64,000 bases of DNA from Escherichia coli (GCF_046105845.1 NZ_CP151004.1), one strand, 5' to 3'; shown: positions 4,067-50,506, numbered from the stretch's first letter. The notes: generated by a model from the sequence alone, not told the origin. Translations and numbers: made by a program.

Positions 4067-4866
4067 AAGATTTCATCACCGAAGCATGGCTAAGAGCGAA
4101 CCATACGCTCAGCGAAGGCGCAGAGATCCATCTCCCTGCGGACAGTCGCCTGACGCCCTCTGCCCGGGAGTTGCTGGAAAGCCGCCATCTGCGCATCAAG
4201 TTTATTGACGAGCAGGGCCGCCTGTTTGTTGACGATGAACAGCAGCAGCCGCAGCCCGTTCATGGGCTGACCAGTAGCGATGAACATCCGCAGGCGTGCT
4301 GCGAACTGTGCCGCCAGCCGGTGGCGAAAAAGCCGGATACGCTGACTCACCTGTCGGCGGAAAAAATGGTTGCCAAAAGCGATCCGCGTCTGGGTTTTCG
4401 TGCGGTTCTCGACAGCACCATTGCGCTGGCAGTGTGGCTGCAAATTGAACTGGCGGAACCGTGGCAGCCGTGGCTGGCGGATATCCGTTCGCGTCTTGGC
4501 AACATTATGCGTGCCGATGCGCTGGGGGAACCGCTGGGCGATCAAGCGATTGTCGGGCTTTCTGACGAAGATCTGCACCGGCTTTCTCATCAGCCGTTGC
4601 GTTATCTTGGTCACGATCATCTGGTGCCGGAAGCCAGCCACGGGCGCGATGCGGCGTTGCTGAATCTGCTACGCACCAAAGTGCGGGAAACCGAAACCGT
4701 AGCGGCGCAGGTGTTTATCACCCGCAGCTTTGAAGTATTACGCCCGGACATCTTGCAGGCGCTGAACCGCCTTTCCAGCACGGTCTACGTGATGATGATC
4801 CTGAGCGTAACGAAGCAGCCGCTAACGGTGAAGCAGATCCAACAACGACTGGGGGAAACGCAATGA
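4063..4866 (+). CDS. eutT: EutT corrinoid adenosyltransferase
   Basis: 267 aa; ATGA start/stop overlap with eutQ; position in eut operon. Confidence 0.9.
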
Positions 4867-5879
4867 TTATTGAACGTTGTCGTGAACTGGCGTTGCGAGC
4901 GCCCGCCACAGTGGTTTTTCCGGATGCGTTAGATCAACGTGTGCTGAAAGCTGCGCAATATTTACATCAACAAGGTCTGGCAACGCCCATTCTGGTCGCC
5001 AATCCGTTTGAACTTCGTCAGTTTGCGCTCAGTCACGGCGTGGCGATGGACGGGCTACAGGTGATAGATCCACATGGCAACCTCGCAATGCGGGAAGAAT
5101 TTGCCCATCGCTGGCTGGCCCGCGCGGGCGAAAAAACGCCGCCGGATGCGCTGGAAAAACTCACCGAACCGCTTATGTTCGCCGCAGCAATGGTCAGCGC
5201 CGGTAAAGCGGATGTCTGTATCGCGGGCAACCTCTCTTCCACGGCGAATGTGCTGCGTGCCGGATTACGCATTATCGGCTTGCAGCCAGGCTGTAAAACG
5301 CTCTCCTCCATTTTCCTGATGCTGCCACAGTACAGTGGCCCCGCATTGGGCTTTGCCGATTGCAGCGTGGTGCCACAGCCGACGGCGGCGCAGTTGGCGG
5401 ATATCGCGCTTGCCAGCGCCGAAACCTGGCGCGCCATCACCGGAGAAGAGCCGCGCGTGGCGATGTTGTCGTTTTCCAGTAACGGCAGCGCCCGTCACCC
5501 CTGCGTTGCCAATGTCCAGCAGGCGACAGAAATCGTCCGTGAGCGCGCGCCGCAGTTGGTAGTCGATGGCGAGTTGCAGTTTGACGCCGCCTTCGTGCCG
5601 GAAGTGGCGGCGCAAAAAGCGCCTGCCAGCCCGCTACAAGGCAAGGCCAATGTGATGGTTTTTCCGTCGCTGGAAGCCGGAAATATTGGCTACAAAATCG
5701 CACAACGACTCGGCGGATATCGTGCCGTCGGGCCATTGATACAAGGACTTGCCGCGCCGATGCACGATCTCTCTCGTGGTTGTAGCGTGCAGGAAATTAT
5801 CGAGCTGGCGCTGGTGGCAGCTGTGCCGCGTCAGACAGAAGTAAACCGTGAAAGCAGTTTACAAACACTGGTTGAATGA
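4863..5879 (+). CDS. eutD: EutD phosphotransacetylase (Pta family)
   Basis: 338 aa Pta-like translation; ATGA overlap with eutT. Confidence 0.92.
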
Positions 5880-5917
5880 ACGGTCCCGTTCTGGACCCTG
5901 ATAAAGAGGAAAGCACA

Positions 5918-6211
5918 ATGGAAGCATTAGGAATGATCGAAACCCGGGGCCTGGTTGCACTGATTGAGGCTTCTGACGCGATGGTTAAAGCTGCGCGCGT
6001 CAAGCTGGTTGGTGTTAAGCAGATTGGCGGCGGCCTGTGTACTGCCATGGTTCGTGGTGATGTTGCAGCCTGTAAAGCCGCGACCGACGCAGGTGCTGCA
6101 GCGGCACAGCGTATCGGCGAGCTGGTATCTGTACACGTTATCCCGCGTCCGCACGGCGACCTGGAAGAAGTCTTCCCGATCGGCCTGAAAGGCGATAGCA
6201 GCAACCTGTAA
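5918..6211 (+). CDS. eutM: EutM major microcompartment shell protein (BMC-H)
   Basis: 97 aa [28 protein letters not shown]..; SD aaagagga 8 nt upstream; ORF-track N-terminal extension (5876) rejected. Confidence 0.93.
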
Positions 6212-6317
6212 TCACCCTGTGTGACGTCGATTCGGGCGTCACGCTCTCTCCTTTTTCAGTTTACCTTCCGCGGAGGGTAGGGGGAGCTTTTACCTGAAAT
6301 ACGCCACGGAGGCGGGT

Positions 6318-6605
6318 ATGAAACTGGCAGTCGTCACTGGACAAATTGTTTGTACCGTACGCCATCACGGACTGGCGCATGACAAATTGCTGATGGTGGA
6401 AATGATTGATCCACAAGGTAATCCTGACGGGCAATGTGCCGTCGCCATCGACAATATTGGCGCGGGAACCGGGGAGTGGGTGTTGCTGGTGAGTGGCAGT
6501 TCTGCCCGCCAGGCGCATAAAAGCGAAACGTCACCGGTCGATCTGTGCGTGATTGGCATCGTCGATGAGGTGGTGTCTGGCGGTCAGGTAATTTTCCACA
6601 AATAA
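6318..6605 (+). CDS. eutN: EutN microcompartment vertex protein (BMC-P)
   Basis: 95 aa MKLAVVTGQIVCTVRHHGL..; follows eutM. Confidence 0.92.
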   Translation: MKLAVVTGQIVCTVRHHGLAHDKLLMVEMIDPQGNPDGQCAVAIDNIGAGTGEWVLLVSGSSARQAHKSETSPVDLCVIGIVDEVVSGGQVIFHK

Positions 6606-6616
6606 GGCAGAACATC

Positions 6617-8020
6617 ATGAATCAACAGGATATTGAACAGGTGGTGAAAGCGGTACTGCTGAAAATGCAAAGCAGTGACACGCCGCCCGCCGCCGTTCAT
6701 GAGATAGGCGTTTTCGCGTCCCTGGATGACGCCGTTGCGGCAGCCAAAATTGCCCAGCAAGGGTTAAAGAGCGTGGCAATGCGCCAGTTAGCCATTGCTG
6801 CCATTCGTGAAGCAGGCGAAAAACACGCCAGAGATTTAGCGGAACTTGCCGTCAGTGAAACCGGCATGGGCCGCATCGAAGATAAATTTGCCAAAAACGT
6901 CGCTCAGGCGCGCGGCACACCGGGCGTTGAGTGCCTCTCTCCGCAGGTGCTGACTGGCGACAACGGCCTGACTTTAATTGAAAACGCGCCCTGGGGCGTG
7001 GTGGCTTCGGTGACGCCTTCCACTAACCCGGCGGCAACCGTCATTAATAACGCCATCAGCCTGATTGCCGCGGGCAACAGCGTCATTTTTGCCCCGCATC
7101 CGGCGGCGAAAAAAGTCTCCCAGCGGGCGATCACGCTGCTCAACCAGGCGATTGTTGCCGCAGGCGGGCCGGAAAACTTACTGGTTACTGTGGCCAATCC
7201 GGATATCGAAACCGCGCAACGTTTGTTCAAGTTCCCGGGTATCGGCCTGCTGGTGGTGACCGGCGGCGAAGCGGTAGTGGAAGCGGCGCGTAAACACACC
7301 AATAAACGTCTGATTGCCGCAGGTGCTGGCAACCCGCCGGTAGTGGTGGATGAAACCGCTGACCTCGCCCGTGCAGCTCAGTCCATCGTCAAAGGCGCGT
7401 CTTTCGATAACAACATCATTTGTGCCGACGAAAAGGTACTGATTGTTGTGGATAGCGTAGCCGATGAACTGATGCGTCTGATGGAAGGCCAGCACGCGGT
7501 GAAACTGACCGCAGAGCAGGCGCAGCAGCTACAACCGGTGTTGCTGAAAAATATCGACGAGCGCGGAAAAGGCACCGTCAGCCGTGACTGGGTTGGTCGT
7601 GATGCGGCGAAAATCGCGGCGGCAATCGGCCTTACAGTTCCGGAACAAACGCGACTGCTGTTTGTAGAAACCACCGCAGAACATCCGTTTGCCGTGACCG
7701 AACTGATGATGCCGGTGCTGCCCGTCGTGCGCGTCGCCAACGTGGCGGATGCCATTGCGCTGGCGGTGAAACTGGAAGGCGGTTGCCACCACACGGCGGC
7801 AATGCACTCGCGCAATATCGAGAACATGAACCAGATGGCGAATGCCATTGATACCAGCATTTTCGTTAAGAACGGACCGTGCATTGCCGGGCTGGGGCTG
7901 GGCGGGGAAGGCTGGACCACCATGACCATCACCACGCCAACCGGTGAAGGGGTAACCAGCGCGCGTACGTTTGTCCGTCTGCGTCGCTGTGTATTAGTCG
8001 ATGCGTTTCGCATTGTTTAA
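6617..8020 (+). CDS. eutE: EutE CoA-acylating acetaldehyde dehydrogenase
   Basis: 467 aa aldehyde-dehydrogenase-like translation with N-terminal BMC-targeting-like helix; operon position. Confidence 0.92.
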   Translation: MNQQDIEQVVKAVLLKMQSSDTPPAAVHEIGVFASLDDAVAAAKIAQQGLKSVAMRQLAIAAIREAGEKHARDLAELAVSETGMGRIEDKFAKNVAQARGTPGVECLSPQVLTGDNGLTLIENAPWGVVASVTPSTNPAATVINNAISLIAAGNSVIFAPHPAAKKVSQRAITLLNQAIVAAGGPENLLVTVANPDIETAQRLFKFPGIGLLVVTGGEAVVEAARKHTNKRLIAAGAGNPPVVVDETADLARAAQSIVKGASFDNNIICADEKVLIVVDSVADELMRLMEGQHAVKLTAEQAQQLQPVLLKNIDERGKGTVSRDWVGRDAAKIAAAIGLTVPEQTRLLFVETTAEHPFAVTELMMPVLPVVRVANVADAIALAVKLEGGCHHTAAMHSRNIENMNQMANAIDTSIFVKNGPCIAGLGLGGEGWTTMTITTPTGEGVTSARTFVRLRRCVLVDAFRIV

Positions 8021-32540: not shown

Positions 32541-32933
<393 letters not shown>

Positions 32934-42321: not shown

Positions 42322-43316
42322 GCTTTATTGGCGCGGCTTTCCTGCTGCGCCTGTAACTGTTCGGTCTGGTGTTTGTATCGACGCGCCAGCACCGCACAGA
42401 CCATCAATTGGATCTGATGGAAAATCATCAGAGGCAGCACCATCATACCGATCACCGATGTGGGGAAAAGAATGTTTGCCATCGGGATGCCATTTGCCAG
42501 ACTCTTTTTCGAACCACAAAAGACGATAGTAATTTCATCTGCCTTATTGAAGCCCAGTCGGCGTGCCATAAAGACGTTAACTACAATCACGATAGCCAGA
42601 AGAACGCAGCTGACCACCACGATAAACAGCAATGATCCCCAGCCAACTTTATGCCAGATACCATTAACAACGGCTTCGCTGAACGCTGTATAAACCACCA
42701 ATAGAATGGACGTCTGGTCAGTTTTCGCAATCCATTTTTTATTGCGCGACACCCAGTCACCAATCCACGGCCGGGAAAGATGCCCCAACACAAACGGCAG
42801 CAGCAGTTGCAGCATAATTTTACCGACCTGCTCAAGGCTGCCCCCTGCACCGTGAACATTCATCACCAGACCAACCAGCAATGGTGAAAGGAAAATCCCC
42901 AGCAGGCTGGATGCTGACGCAGAACAAACCGCCGCCGCGACGTTACCGCCCGCCATTGACGTGAAGGCGATTGCAGACTGCACGGTAGCGGGGAGAATGC
43001 ACAAGTAGAGAAAACCGGAGTAGAGCATCGGGTCGACATTTACCGGTTTCCACCAGGCAAACAGCACGCCCAGAATCGGAAACAGCACGAAGGTGCTGCA
43101 CATTACCCACAAATGCAGTCGCCAGTGCCCACCGCCAGCAATAATCGCCTCACGCGACAACTTCGCGCCGTGCATAAAAAACAGCAGGGCAATCGCTGCG
43201 GTGGTCAGATTTTCAAAGAAGGGGACGAAATCGCCTCTGGCCGGAAAGAAAGAGGCCAGCAACACCACCGTGATCAGGGTTAAGGTGAAAGGATCGAGGA
43301 TACGAAAAAGTTTCAT
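42318..43316 (-). CDS. yfeH: Putative bile-acid/Na+ symporter family membrane transporter YfeH
   Basis: 332 aa polytopic membrane protein; stop codon overlaps ypeB stop in antiparallel. Confidence 0.88.
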   Translation of the reverse strand: MKLFRILDPFTLTLITVVLLASFFPARGDFVPFFENLTTAAIALLFFMHGAKLSREAIIAGGGHWRLHLWVMCSTFVLFPILGVLFAWWKPVNVDPMLYSGFLYLCILPATVQSAIAFTSMAGGNVAAAVCSASASSLLGIFLSPLLVGLVMNVHGAGGSLEQVGKIMLQLLLPFVLGHLSRPWIGDWVSRNKKWIAKTDQTSILLVVYTAFSEAVVNGIWHKVGWGSLLFIVVVSCVLLAIVIVVNVFMARRLGFNKADEITIVFCGSKKSLANGIPMANILFPTSVIGMMVLPLMIFHQIQLMVCAVLARRYKHQTEQLQAQQESRANKA

Positions 43317-43405
43317 AAAGACTCCAGATGATCGATGGTTCTATTGTGCTTCTTCCAGTTTGAGAAATAAAATTGATTTATTGCATCCATTCATGAAGAA
43401 AACAG

Positions 43406-44332
43406 ATGAATTATTCTTTAAAACAATTAAAGGTTTTCGTCACAGTAGCGCAGGAGAAAAGTTTTAGTCGTGCAGGAGAGCGTATCGGCCTGAGCCAGTC
43501 GGCAGTGAGTCACAGTGTGAAGGAGCTGGAAAATCATACTGGTGTTCGCCTGCTGGACAGAACCACGCGTGAAGTGGTGCTTACAGATGCAGGGCAGCAG
43601 TTGGCTTTGCGTCTTGAGCGACTGCTGGATGAACTTAACAGCACGTTGCGCGATACCGGGCGTATGGGGCAACAACTGAGCGGAAAAGTTCGGGTCGCTG
43701 CCAGCCAGACCATTTCCGCGCATCTTATTCCGCAATGCATTGCTGAAAGCCATCGCCGCTATCCAGATATTCAGTTTGTCCTGCACGATCGTCCGCAGCA
43801 GTGGGTGATGGAAAGTATTCGCCAGGGAGATGTCGATTTTGGCATCGTCATCGATCCAGGCCCAGTGAGCGATCTGCAATGTGAAGCGATTCTTTCCGAG
43901 CCTTTCTTCTTGCTTTGCCATCGCGATAGCGCTTTGGCCGAGGAAGATTATGTACCCTGGCAGGCATTACAGGGAGCGAAATTGGTGTTGCAGGATTACG
44001 CGTCAGGCAGCCGACCGCTGATTGACGCAGCTCTGGCGCGCAACGGTATTCAGGCGAATATTGTGCAGGAGATTGGTCATCCGGCGACGCTGTTCCCGAT
44101 GGTAGCCGCAGGCATCGGCATCAGTATTCTTCCCGCACTGGCGCTACCATTGCCTGAAGGTAGCCCACTGGTGATAAAGCGCATTACACCGGTGGTAGAA
44201 CGCCAGTTGATGCTGGTGCGCAGGAAGAACCGTTCACTTTCCACCGCCGCACAAGCGTTATGGGACGTGGTACGAGACCAGGGCCATGCGCTAATGGCTG
44301 GGCGGGAAGGGGATCCGTTGTATCAGATATAG
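43406..44332 (+). CDS. yfeR: LysR-type transcriptional regulator YfeR
   Basis: 308 aa [42 protein letters not shown].. (N-terminal HTH); divergent from yfeH. Confidence 0.92.
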
Positions 44333-44664
44333 ATATCGATCTGAGTCGTTTTTTCAACAGGATTTGGAAGGGATGCATTCAGAGACAAACGCTGCTCTTT
44401 CTCCTGCGCTTTTTCTGCCTGCTGTCTTTGCAACTGCGCCAGTTGTGTTTCCAGTAGGGTGATTTGCTGCTGAATCAATTCGGCCTGTTTTTGCTTGTCT
44501 TCAGCACTGCCGCTAGTGTCTGCAATCTCTTTAATTTGTTGAGTGAGTTTGATGATTTGCTGACTTATCCGCGCAATTTGTGAAGCAACATCGCTACCTT
44601 CTGATGCCCTGTTACTACTCTGTGTTTGTATGGAAGGAATTGAAGTTGGAGAGATAGTGGCCAT
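44323..44664 (-). CDS. Hypothetical coiled-coil protein, FlxA-like (flagellar-regulon-type protein of unknown function)
   Basis: 113-aa ORF with GAGG SD 8 nt upstream of ATG; S/T-rich N-terminus then Q/L/K/E-rich predicted coiled coil ([57 protein letters not shown]), C-terminus ..QIDIYI; own sigma-28-like promoter; family assignment from memory, not searched. Confidence 0.6.
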
Positions 44665-44692
44665 TGTTCAGTCCTCGTCACTGTACGAGGTA

Positions 44693-44719
44693 ATATCGGC
44701 AGAAGAACAAGGAACTTGA
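44693..44719 (-). promoter_or_regulatory. Putative sigma-28 (FliA)-dependent promoter of the FlxA-like ORF
   Basis: Minus-strand read TCAAGTTC-N11-GCCGATAT vs FliA consensus TAAAGTTT-N11-GCCGATAA; 28 nt upstream of the ORF start. Confidence 0.5.
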
Positions 44720-44752
44720 GAAGAAAAATCAATCTTACAAACCGCATATAGC

Positions 44753-44779
44753 AAAAAAGCGCCTTTAGGGCGCCTTTTT
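44753..44779 (-). terminator. Rho-independent terminator of the valU-valX-valY-lysV tRNA operon
   Basis: A-tract, gcgcc..ggcgc hairpin, T-tract immediately 3' of lysV. Confidence 0.75.
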
Positions 44780-44783
44780 ACAT

Positions 44784-44859
44784 TGGTGGGTCGTGCAGGA
44801 TTCGAACCTGCGACCAATTGATTAAAAGTCAACTGCTCTACCAACTGAGCTAACGACCC
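44784..44859 (-). tRNA. lysV: tRNA-Lys (anticodon UUU)
   Basis: Reverse complement reads GGGTCGTTAGCTCAGTTGGTAGAGCAGTTGACTTTTAATCAATTGGTCGCAGGTTCGAATCCTGCACGACCCACCA; 76 nt with encoded CCA. Confidence 0.97.
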
Positions 44860-44863
44860 GAAG

Positions 44864-44939
44864 TGGTGGGTGATGACGGGATCGAACCGCCGACCCCCTC
44901 CTTGTAAGGGAGGTGCTCTCCCAGCTGAGCTAATCACCC
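44864..44939 (-). tRNA. valY: tRNA-Val (anticodon UAC)
   Basis: Reverse complement reads GGGTGATTAGCTCAGCTGGGAGAGCACCTCCCTTACAAGGAGGGGGTCGGCGGTTCGATCCCGTCATCACCCACCA; 4-nt spacer to lysV. Confidence 0.97.
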
Positions 44940-44985
44940 ACTTCGGTACTTCACATTTTTACAAGAAATTTAGCTGGTGAGAAAG

Positions 44986-45061
44986 TGGTGGGTGATGACG
45001 GGATCGAACCGCCGACCCCCTCCTTGTAAGGGAGGTGCTCTCCCAGCTGAGCTAATCACCC
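44986..45061 (-). tRNA. valX: tRNA-Val (anticodon UAC)
   Basis: Identical 76-nt tRNA-Val copy. Confidence 0.97.
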
Positions 45062-45105
45062 ACTTCTCAATTTCTTGCTACACGGCGGAGACTACATAAA
45101 GTAGT

Positions 45106-45181
45106 TGGTGGGTGATGACGGGATCGAACCGCCGACCCCCTCCTTGTAAGGGAGGTGCTCTCCCAGCTGAGCTAATCACCC
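45106..45181 (-). tRNA. valU: tRNA-Val (anticodon UAC)
   Basis: Identical 76-nt tRNA-Val copy; first gene of the tRNA operon. Confidence 0.97.
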
Positions 45182-45198
45182 CCGCTGTGTGGAGTCGC

Positions 45199-45226
45199 AT
45201 TATAGGGAGAGTTCAAAATGAGTCAA
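45199..45226 (-). promoter_or_regulatory. Sigma-70 promoter of the valU tRNA operon (stringent-type)
   Basis: Minus-strand read TTGACT-N16-TATAAT followed by GC-rich discriminator gcgactcc, about 18 nt upstream of valU. Confidence 0.7.
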
Positions 45227-45439
45227 CGCATTTTCTAAAGAAATTGTTCGTTCGTCGTAAATTTAAGCAAGATGATCGCAAAACAGACCGTGTTGCGCAA
45301 TTTGTCAACGAAAACAATAATGCGTAAGGTTGCAACCCGAACTACATTGAGGAATCAGGCGGGAGTGATAGAATATCGCCCACTCAATTTTTCCAGGATT
45401 TGCCGGTTGTCGGCATCTTTCTAAACGTAAGGCCATTTC

Positions 45440-46855
45440 ATGAAAATCAAAACTCGCTTCGCGCCAAGCCCAACAGGCTATCTGCACGTTGGCGGCGCGC
45501 GTACTGCTCTTTACTCCTGGCTTTTTGCACGTAACCACGGCGGTGAGTTCGTGCTGCGTATTGAAGACACCGATCTTGAGCGTTCCACGCCGGAAGCTAT
45601 CGAAGCCATTATGGATGGCATGAACTGGCTGAGCCTGGAGTGGGATGAAGGTCCGTACTACCAGACCAAACGTTTTGATCGCTACAACGCGGTGATCGAT
45701 CAGATGCTGGAAGAGGGCACAGCTTATAAATGCTATTGCTCTAAAGAGCGCCTGGAAGCGCTGCGCGAAGAGCAAATGGCGAAAGGTGAGAAACCGCGTT
45801 ATGACGGTCGCTGCCGCCACAGCCATGAGCATCATGCTGATGATGAACCGTGCGTTGTACGTTTTGCTAACCCGCAGGAAGGTTCTGTTGTTTTTGACGA
45901 TCAGATCCGTGGTCCGATCGAATTCAGCAACCAGGAGCTGGATGATCTGATTATCCGTCGTACCGATGGTTCTCCAACCTATAACTTCTGTGTGGTGGTT
46001 GACGACTGGGATATGGAAATCACCCACGTTATCCGTGGCGAAGACCATATCAACAACACGCCACGCCAGATCAACATTCTTAAAGCACTGAAAGCGCCGG
46101 TACCGGTTTACGCGCACGTTTCTATGATCAACGGCGATGACGGCAAAAAACTGTCCAAACGTCACGGGGCGGTCAGCGTAATGCAGTATCGTGATGACGG
46201 TTATCTGCCAGAAGCACTGCTGAACTATCTGGTGCGTCTGGGCTGGTCCCACGGCGATCAGGAAATCTTCACTCGTGAAGAGATGATCAAATACTTCACC
46301 CTGAATGCCGTCAGCAAATCTGCCAGTGCGTTCAACACCGACAAGCTGCTGTGGCTGAACCATCACTACATTAACGCGCTACCGCCGGAGTATGTTGCTA
46401 CTCACTTACAGTGGCACATTGAGCAGGAAAATATCGATACCCGTAACGGCCCGCAGCTGGCTGATCTGGTGAAACTGCTGGGCGAACGCTGCAAGACGCT
46501 GAAAGAGATGGCACAGAGCTGCCGTTATTTCTACGAAGATTTTGCTGAGTTCGATGCCGACGCCGCGAAAAAACATCTGCGTCCGGTAGCGCGTCAGCCG
46601 CTGGAAGTGGTTCGTGACAAACTGGCCGCGATTACTGACTGGACCGCTGAAAACGTTCATCACGCTATTCAGGCGACGGCGGATGAGCTGGAAGTGGGTA
46701 TGGGTAAAGTTGGTATGCCGCTGCGTGTCGCCGTAACTGGTGCGGGGCAGTCTCCGGCGCTGGATGTTACCGTTCACGCAATCGGTAAGACCCGCAGTAT
46801 CGAGCGTATCAACAAAGCGCTGGCTTTTATTGCTGAACGCGAAAATCAGCAGTAA
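45440..46855 (+). CDS. gltX: Glutamate--tRNA ligase GltX
   Basis: 471 aa [30 protein letters not shown].. with class I HVGG and KLSKR motifs. Confidence 0.97.
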
Positions 46856-46872
46856 TTAGCGCATAAAAGATA

Positions 46873-46904
46873 AACGGCAGGAGAGATACCCCTGCCGTTT
46901 TTTA
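46873..46904. terminator. Bidirectional rho-independent terminator between gltX (+) and yfeD (-)
   Basis: 9-bp stem aacggcagg/cctgccgtt followed by tttttt; A-rich on the 5' side. Confidence 0.8.
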
Positions 46905-46905
46905 T

Positions 46906-47298
46906 TTATTCTGATTCATCTATGTCGAGACGAGCAAGGAAATTACGAATTCCTTCGCGTGACAAAAATTGCGCAACTTTTTCCTGCTCACTGTGAGTCA
47001 TGTTGTCTATTGCGCTGATGATTTGCCGATAAGCAGGAGTGCGAATCCCCGGTGCGTATTCGGCAAGGGGTTCTTCGGCTTCCAGAAGCATCGGCGTGTT
47101 ATGGAAGGCTGGCGTGTTCTGAATAAACTCGCAAACTTGCGTATCGACCAGAATAAGTCTGGCACGACCGCCTTTCACGCCAGGAAACTTTTCCGTTTTC
47201 CAGCCTTTTTCTCTGATCCAACGGTTAACAGTTTGTTTAGCCACACCGAGGCATTCAGCCAGTTCTTCGGTGGTCATTTTATTGCGTAATCTTTTCAT
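46906..47298 (-). CDS. yfeD: Small putative DNA-binding protein YfeD (HTH)
   Basis: 130 aa MKRLRNKMTTEELAECLGVAKQTVNRWIREKGW..; paralogous to adjacent yfeC. Confidence 0.88.
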   Translation of the reverse strand: MKRLRNKMTTEELAECLGVAKQTVNRWIREKGWKTEKFPGVKGGRARLILVDTQVCEFIQNTPAFHNTPMLLEAEEPLAEYAPGIRTPAYRQIISAIDNMTHSEQEKVAQFLSREGIRNFLARLDIDESE

Positions 47299-47299
47299 A

Positions 47300-47644
47300 T
47301 TATTTGCTATCGCGAATCCCTAAGCGTTGTAATAATCCGATAATCCCTTCCCGCAGAAGCAAGGATGTAAACTGTTTTTGTTCAACTGGCGTCATCTCTT
47401 TCGCCAGTGTCACCAGCAACACTTCAAGCGGCGCATCACCAGACAGGGCAGGCGCTTCTCCCTGACCTTCTGGACGTTCAGCATTGCGAATATATTCACG
47501 AACCTGTTCATTGACGTGAACCAGTCGGGCTTTGCCACCCTGGACGCCAGGTTTTGGTGACGTTGTCCAGCCTTCCTTGCGTACCCATTTATTAATGGTC
47601 TGGCGGCTATAGCCGGTCAGTCTGGCAAGTTCATCTGGCGTCAT
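47300..47644 (-). CDS. yfeC: Small putative DNA-binding protein YfeC (HTH)
   Basis: 114 aa MTPDELARLTGYSRQTINKWVRKEGW..; strong SD aaggagagg before this ATG; alternative upstream start at 47659 would add 5 aa. Confidence 0.85.
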   Translation of the reverse strand: MTPDELARLTGYSRQTINKWVRKEGWTTSPKPGVQGGKARLVHVNEQVREYIRNAERPEGQGEAPALSGDAPLEVLLVTLAKEMTPVEQKQFTSLLLREGIIGLLQRLGIRDSK

Positions 47645-50474: not shown

Positions 50475-50506
50475 AAAAAAGCCGGGGAATGATCCCCGGC
50501 TTTTTT
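50475..50506. terminator. Bidirectional rho-independent terminator between pdeA (+) and nupC (-)
   Basis: aaaaaa-gccgggga-atga-tccccggc-tttttt; perfect 8-bp GC stem. Confidence 0.85.

Follow-up and report, generated by a model that had tools for sequence, protein, structure and literature searches.

Replacement hotspots, at which alternative cassettes occupy one chromosomal position, exist in Escherichia coli, the O-antigen cluster between galF and gnd being an example. The slot between yfeR and the tRNA gene lysV resembles such hotspots. In the annotation of K-12 MG1655 the order there is lysV-xapR-xapB-xapA-yfeN-yfeR. This xapABR-yfeN locus for xanthosine utilisation encodes the purine nucleoside phosphorylase II XapA, the permease XapB and the LysR activator XapR (Seeger et al. 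1995, as cited in PMC2395238), and xapR-xapA has been reported as a repeatedly co-transferred unit (PMC2395238). A second known system close to the locus treated here is flxA of K-12 (b1566), a FliA-dependent gene of the Qin cryptic prophage, whose 110-aa product belongs to Pfam family PF14282. Almost nothing on this family was found in the literature.

The window analysed here is a stretch of 64,000 nucleotides from E. coli (GCF_046105845.1, NZ_CP151004.1). In it, the stop of yfeR and the start of lysV are separated by 451 bp (44333-44783), and the sole substantial ORF, at 44323-44664 on the minus strand, codes for 113 aa. The features of the slot and its surroundings are the following.

43406-44332, plus strand: yfeR, an intact ORF of 308 aa for a LysR-family regulator (Pfam HTH_1 and LysR_substrate); the left anchor
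44323-44664, minus strand: flxA-like gene, 113 aa, PF14282, with the RefSeq name 'FlxA-like family protein'
44334-44742, no strand assigned: window-specific segment of 409 bp, from blastn breakpoints and junction sequences against K-12
44672-44676, minus strand: GAGGA as Shine-Dalgarno sequence, 7 nt before the ATG at 44664, as read from the DNA
44693-44700, minus strand: putative sigma-28-type -10 element GCCGATAT, a sequence match comparable with FliA ChIP-mapped promoters (PMC4183435)
44712-44719, minus strand: putative sigma-28-type -35 element TCAAGTTC, with an 11-nt spacer to the -10 element
44753-44773, minus strand: intrinsic terminator of the valU-valX-valY-lysV operon (GCGCC...GGCGC and a T run), where the sequence shared with K-12 resumes
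44784-44859, minus strand: lysV, tRNA-Lys(UUU), by ARAGORN and Rfam; the right anchor
44864-45181, minus strand: valY, valX and valU, three tRNA-Val(UAC) genes of the same operon as lysV, by ARAGORN and Rfam
45199-45226, minus strand: candidate sigma-70-like promoter of the tRNA operon, TTGACT-16-TATAAT, by consensus match
45440-46855, plus strand: gltX, conserved, beyond the tRNA operon, by ORF call

Blastn against K-12 showed collinearity on both sides of the slot at 97-98% identity, and YfeR shares 98.4% of its residues with the K-12 protein. The alignment breaks at 44333, one base past the yfeR stop, and homology returns at 44743, at the terminator of the lysV operon; by eye, weak similarity to K-12 reaches about 44733. 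Between these points the window has 409 bp and K-12 has the yfeN-xapA-xapB-xapR block of 4,559 bp. The K-12 locus thus fills exactly the same slot, from yfeR stop to lysV terminator, with 4.56 kb against 0.41 kb, and is unrelated to the flxA-like gene in both sequence and function. With K-12 queries, tblastn found no XapA, XapB or YfeN anywhere in the 64 kb, and the sole match of XapR was the paralogue yfeR, at 26% identity, so that the set of phosphorylase, permease and activator is missing from the window. The GC content of the 409-bp segment is 0.44, that of the whole window 0.53. A hexamer, ATATAG/AGATAG, lies near both junctions and is too short to interpret, and an Rfam search over 43300-45500 returned only tRNAs, with no RtT copy in this allele.

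A preliminary description of the window had given 44332 as the end of yfeR and 44784 as the start of lysV, and the ORF call and ARAGORN returned exactly these positions. The K-12 map that it gave, with xapR, xapB, xapA and yfeN between lysV and yfeR, agrees with the MG1655 annotation, and the absence it proposed extends to the entire window; an interval of about 450 bp is not what K-12 has. It had also described yfeR and the tRNA operon as intact and the junctions as clean, as is the case, one junction lying a single base after the yfeR stop and the other just outside the lysV terminator. The lone FlxA-like ORF that it placed in the interval was likewise recovered, as the one credible ORF.

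The flxA-like gene is convergent with yfeR, and its final 10 nt (...Y-I-stop) overlap the final 10 nt of that gene. Its product matches PF14282 at 55.7 bits (cut-off 26.3, E = 5.9e-15), and orthologues from five other genera score 63-75 bits, all above the cut-off. Between genera dN/dS is about 0.1 (0.10 between Scandinavium and Kluyvera, 0.14 between the window and Pseudocitrobacter faecalis), and the ORF is a real gene under purifying selection. In an AlphaFold2 model built with 50 homologues, two helices (22-49 and 54-97) are predicted to form a hairpin between disordered ends; the mean pLDDT is 68. Foldseek searches of the PDB with this model returned nothing at E < 0.1; the best match was the helical hairpin of the FliJ-like protein CdsO (E = 0.24), a score that any helical hairpin could reach and which serves as a lead only. 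NCBIfam gave sub-threshold coiled-coil noise only, and word-indexed protein searches gave few named matches, with no Salmonella or Escherichia outgroup among them. A phage origin of the gene was considered and rejected, as tblastn against 50,697 phage records found no match.

The protein belongs to the same family as the K-12 prophage protein. The two are of similar length, both have a central coiled-coil region, and both end in the C-terminal IDIY[IV] motif that the alignment shows to be common to the FlxA family. Both genes are preceded by promoters of sigma-28 type with an 11-nt spacer, TAAAGATT-N11-GCCGATAG in K-12 and the putative TCAAGTTC-N11-GCCGATAT here. Their identity, however, is 45% and covers only 74 residues, and the K-12 gene is borne by a prophage whereas the flxA-like gene sits at a conserved chromosomal position overlapping yfeR. 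K-12 itself has no copy of the chromosomal gene.

The predicted sigma-28 (FliA) promoter is found at 44719-44693 on the minus strand, about 28 nt upstream of the flxA-like ATG. On this strand the motif starts 33 nt past the T-run of the tRNA-operon terminator and is followed by GAGGA and then the ATG at 44664. It fits the sigma-28 consensus TAAAGTTT-N11-GCCGATAA, and FliA ChIP-mapped promoters resemble it, namely those of flgKL (TCAAGTCC...GCCGATAA), motAB (...GCCGATAT) and K-12 flxA (PMC4183435). The pattern TMAAG-N14-GCCGATA has one match in the window against 0.01 expected by chance; among the loci compared, each of the 12 with a flxA-type gene has a single match, and the 10 without such a gene have none. 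The upstream regions of six taxa were aligned, comprising two E. coli haplotypes, two Pseudocitrobacter, Enterobacter hormaechei and Scandinavium. In this alignment CTCAAG and TGCCGATA are invariant while the adjoining bases diverge, and the AGGA of the Shine-Dalgarno sequence is invariant as well. The consensus match, the likeness to mapped promoters, the uniqueness of the pattern and its invariance across taxa together point to the flxA-like gene as a putative FliA-dependent member of the late-flagellar class. A 5'-UTR hairpin that would occlude the Shine-Dalgarno sequence (44690-44673) was also considered and discarded; at -8.6 kcal/mol its z of -1.6 is not significant, and it lacks conservation in Enterobacter and Scandinavium. 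An IS1203 insertion interrupts the flxA-like gene of strain 1916D18 (L004 6582-8236), and the sigma-28 -10 element carries a G>A change (ACCGATAT; L004 8266-8291), so that the gene appears to be decaying there.

The frequency of the two arrangements was surveyed in 5,426 complete E. coli genomes, the xap block being counted at a coverage of at least 80% of the K-12 block. The block was present in 4,066 genomes (75%). The 409-bp flxA-like segment was present in 1,316, always as a single chromosomal copy, and the contiguous yfeR-flxA-lysV stretch in at least 1,200. The two sets were counted separately and add up to 5,382 of the 5,426 genomes, a sum in which any genome with both would be counted twice. 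Carriers of the flxA segment include E. coli B, BL21(DE3), LY180, O157:H7, O55:H7 and O145; in O157:H7 genomes the xap query matches only RtT or tRNA-adjacent bits. Variable presence of xapB and xapR among E. coli phylogroups has been published (PMC9602453). As the flxA-like ORF is annotated in RefSeq, the absence of xap is ordinary, known variation: the difference between yfeR and lysV is a common dimorphism, already annotated as strain variation, and not a private deletion. No paper was found that says outright that xapABR is missing from B or O157 strains.

The slot was then compared across genera. A search with YfeR gave eight loci, with none from E. albertii, E. fergusonii or Salmonella. 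The Salmonella-like loci were reached through an identical HPr protein and are identified only by having ptsJ/yfeJ as neighbours and by a LigA identity of about 93%. The flxA-like gene is alone in the slot in Enterobacter hormaechei, Scandinavium goeteborgense, Pluralibacter, Pseudocitrobacter faecalis and a Pseudocitrobacter MAG. In all of these the same arrangement was found, with a convergent PF14282 ORF of 113-115 aa, a 10-nt overlap with the yfeR stop, and then the Lys/Val tRNA operon and gltX. The remaining loci contained the following.

Citrobacter: yfeR-xapA-xapB-xapR-lysV
Pseudocitrobacter vendiensis and two divergent Escherichia (L010, L012): yfeN-xapABR
Most Salmonella-like loci: yfeN-xapA-xapB...
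One Salmonella-like locus: REP/BIME elements only
Another Salmonella-like locus: unrelated content
Kluyvera, with both elements: yfeR-flxA-yfeN-xapA-xapB-xapR
Leclercia, with both elements: yfeR-xapA-xapB-xapR-flxA-lysV

In Kluyvera and Leclercia, xap is thus found on opposite sides of the flxA-like gene, and the slot is hypervariable across Enterobacteriaceae. Some of these loci have peculiarities of their own. The 'empty' Salmonella-like slot is a 191-bp spacer of REP/BIME sequence and a partial RtT unit (L039, first 7 kb reverse-complemented, 4817-5007), and the Salmonella-like locus with unrelated content has no tRNA within 2.2 kb (L035, reverse-complemented, 4812-7000). In the divergent 'E. 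coli' SCPM-O-B-8794 (L010 10969-17551) the block is enlarged: ahead of xapA-xapB-xapR lie yfeN, a gene for an additional XapB-like permease at 61% identity, and a further 1.2 kb or so.

We consider it probable, for the explanation as a whole, that a variable chromosomal slot exists here in two common allelic forms, of which the short interval is one. This strain would carry the older resident, a flxA-like gene with its own sigma-28-type promoter and ribosome-binding site, transcribed towards yfeR. Strains of K-12 type would carry a horizontally mobile yfeN-xapA-xapB-xapR xanthosine cassette and would have lost the flxA-like gene. The two alleles, unrelated in sequence, take up the same position, which begins one base past the yfeR stop and stops just short of the lysV terminator.

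The relative age of the occupants is suggested by the distribution across genera, by the Leclercia junction and by divergence relative to the flanks, which together indicate that the flxA-like gene was probably there first and that in strains of K-12 type it gave way to xap, a mobile cassette. In Leclercia the flxA gene retains the tail ATCAGACGTAA, which elsewhere is the end of yfeR, and yfeR has a new C-terminus (...YRIC); by its sequence, this junction shows that xapABR went into a pre-existing yfeR/flxA overlap. The flxA segments of the window and P. faecalis are 82-87% identical in DNA and their flanks 75-85%, with a dS of 0.56 in flxA and 0.72 in yfeR, so that the divergence of flxA tracks that of the flanks. 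The xapB genes of K-12 and Pseudocitrobacter vendiensis, by comparison, are 97-99% identical in DNA against 75-81% in the flanks (L006 12871-14124 against L001), which has the appearance of a recent intergenus transfer. The flxA-like gene can also move between genera, unless the contig is chimeric, since the segment of the Pseudocitrobacter MAG (L005 4465-4860) is 92-97% identical to positions 44323-44720 of the window with yfeR at about 85%; between this MAG and E. coli, dS is 0.10 in the flxA segment and 0.71 in yfeR. On balance the comparison favours more than one entry of xap into the slot, with K-12-type strains and Citrobacter ending without flxA.

The preliminary description had left the choice between an alternative occupant here and an insertion in K-12. 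Each half has proved partly right: the slot does have alternative occupants (4,066 genomes with xap against 1,316 with the flxA-like segment), and that xap is the later addition is suggested by the other genera.

An unlikely origin for the two alleles is reciprocal loss from a composite ancestor, in which a slot that held both flxA and yfeN-xapABR was reduced by deletion of flxA in K-12 types and of yfeN through xapR in the present type. The order and orientations in Kluyvera equal those of K-12 plus flxA, and an 8-mer, AATCAATC, that borders the flxA -35 element on its outer side in the window recurs immediately beyond the yfeN stop in K-12, although this could be chance. E. coli HH97 has a decayed slot with fragments of flxA (84-88% identity) and xapB (81-84% identity) in the composite order, but it is a singleton full of homopolymer runs. 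This slot (L024 6644-7860) forms a third state of 1,217 bp, either a relic of a flxA and xap composite or poor sequence. No intact composite occurred among the E. coli genomes sampled, and the order in Leclercia is opposite to that in Kluyvera, so that composites arose more than once. A composite ancestor concerns origin and is compatible with later exchange of the alleles by recombination.

It is quite doubtful, too, that the slot is an old two-allele locus maintained by selection across genera of Enterobacteriaceae, with a FliA-regulon flxA-like gene, possibly for a FliJ/CdsO-like helical hairpin that acts at the flagellar type III apparatus or is exported by it, set against a nucleoside-scavenging cassette. 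If this were true, a core late-flagellar gene kept by a quarter of E. coli and many relatives would be missing from K-12, the strain that serves as reference for the flagellar regulon.

That xap is ancestral, and that a flxA-like cassette was imported from other Enterobacteriaceae in its place, is very unlikely. The facts that speak for it, and against an older flxA, are the 75% majority of the xap type, its presence in divergent Escherichia, Citrobacter and most Salmonella-like loci, the low GC (0.44) of the flxA segment, and the near-identity of the flxA segments of E. coli and the Pseudocitrobacter MAG. Deep haplotypes exist within both alleles, at 93% versus 99% identity for xap and 97% versus 100% for flxA, and they too count against an older flxA; the two E. 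coli flxA haplotypes, however, are about 3% apart, a distance similar to that between phylogroups, and this counts against an import. The overlap geometry of flxA and yfeR and the promoter, moreover, have been kept in six genera with divergence that tracks the flanks, and at the Leclercia junction it is xap that was put into an existing yfeR/flxA overlap.

Under the preferred reading of two common alleles, exchange between lineages would probably proceed by homologous recombination in yfeR and in the near-invariant tRNA operon, not by site-specific integration. E. coli B, of flxA type, and K-12, of xap type, are about 99.9% identical on either side of the slot as far as the junctions: the final 250 bp of yfeR contain only three differences, and 5.8 kb of the tRNA/gltX flank contain four. 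Outside the final ~250 bp of yfeR, these flanks therefore give no sign of an imported tract. When eleven E. coli loci were compared, the 48 variable positions in yfeR did not segregate with slot type. This uncoupling of allele and flank fits exchange by homologous recombination and is the pattern that would be expected, though not a demonstration, of repeated events with crossovers close to the cassette. REP elements may contribute to rearrangement, as they abut the xapR-side junction and fill the empty Salmonella-like slot. The slot shares with the replacement hotspots of E. coli its unrelated sequences at one position between conserved flanks, here with flank haplotypes uncoupled from the cassette, and differs from them in its tiny scale of one gene against four.

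An integrase-mediated island, in which one occupant integrated site-specifically at the 3' end of lysV, is effectively refuted. Like tRNA-associated integrative islands, the slot lies beside the 3' side of a tRNA gene and varies in content between strains and genera, and some strains have a copy of the last 17 nt of lysV inside a 156-bp RtT-like unit. Unlike them, it has no integrase or mobility gene between ligA and pdeA (the annotation of a near-identical strain shows only core genes over 40 kb), no attL/attR-like direct repeats of the tRNA 3' end in 44200-45300, and a boundary outside the tRNA and its terminator. The inspection of the junctions for direct repeats that the preliminary description recommended found none flanking the 409-bp segment, whether att-like or of target-site type, and the RtT-like duplication, which accompanies either allele, encloses no more than about 100 nt. 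The 'tRNA-proximal variable slot' proposed there stands as a variable slot and is not to be read as an integrase-type island. A strain-private deletion or an assembly artefact, for which nothing speaks except the shortness of the interval, is refuted, and chance is excluded with it, because the 409-bp segment is found once per genome, identical or nearly so, in 1,316 of the 5,426 complete genomes and recurs in other genera.

Further variation was seen around the slot. The RtT-like tandem unit mentioned above lies downstream of lysV in many strains and consists of the lysV terminator, the last 17 nt of lysV and about 100 nt more (L003 3885-4040; L001 3330-3500; L007 11400-11540). It is found in K-12, VCSW7 and P. 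faecalis, with two extra copies in Escherichia sp. L012, and is absent from the window (44743-44783) and from O157 and B types; since it accompanies both slot alleles, it is an independent copy-number polymorphism. The tRNA array varies as well. Strain 118UI, which has a flxA segment 100% identical to that of the window, carries Lys-Val-Lys-Val where the window (44784-45181) and K-12 have Lys-Val-Val-Val, and a Pseudocitrobacter MAG has Lys-Lys-Lys-Val-Lys (variant arrays at L023 20451-20813; L005 4923-5519; L025 20451-21050). In the BL21(DE3) assembly CP081489, a 5S rRNA gene and mobB/mobA directly follow two Val genes, which indicates a rearrangement at the tRNA operon.

Beyond gltX, yfeD (~46830-47300) is unusually divergent among E. 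coli strains. The window and E. coli B have 41 differences in one 250-bp bin, and VCSW7 and E. coli B have 20-31 per bin, with 0-10 in the neighbouring bins; identity to K-12 is 93.8% for YfeD and 99.8-100% for GltX and YfeC. Compared with K-12, the window lacks about 958 bp that include yfeS, the gene for a WGR-domain protein, and the junction between cysM and yfeK at 32543/32544 is clean; yfeS is also absent in strain 118UI and is present in BL21 and B. The K-12 IS186 between nupC and pdeA is absent as well (~50485-50496), and at this empty site the blast segments overlap by 12 bp, consistent with a target duplication in K-12.

The difference at this locus is a textbook accessory-gene replacement in a recombination-prone slot and not a new kind of element. 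What is mildly new is that a conserved chromosomal occupant, with a putative sigma-28 promoter footprinted phylogenetically, is missing in K-12, and that the slot is hypervariable across Enterobacteriaceae. K-12 is unrepresentative at the yfeR-lysV slot, with a practical consequence that is modest but real. XapA, XapB and XapR should be missing from roughly a quarter of E. coli, among them O157:H7 and the B/BL21 strains used in production. These strains would then be predicted to lack the use of xanthosine, a second purine nucleoside phosphorylase and the nicotinamide salvage that has been described as dependent on XapA (PMC3923242). The present strain is accordingly predicted not to use xanthosine via XapAB, and would make a FlxA-family helical-hairpin protein of about 12 kDa alongside the late flagellar genes. 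For studies of the flagellar regulon and of FlxA, the chromosomal flxA-like gene is a better-conserved subject than the prophage flxA of K-12.
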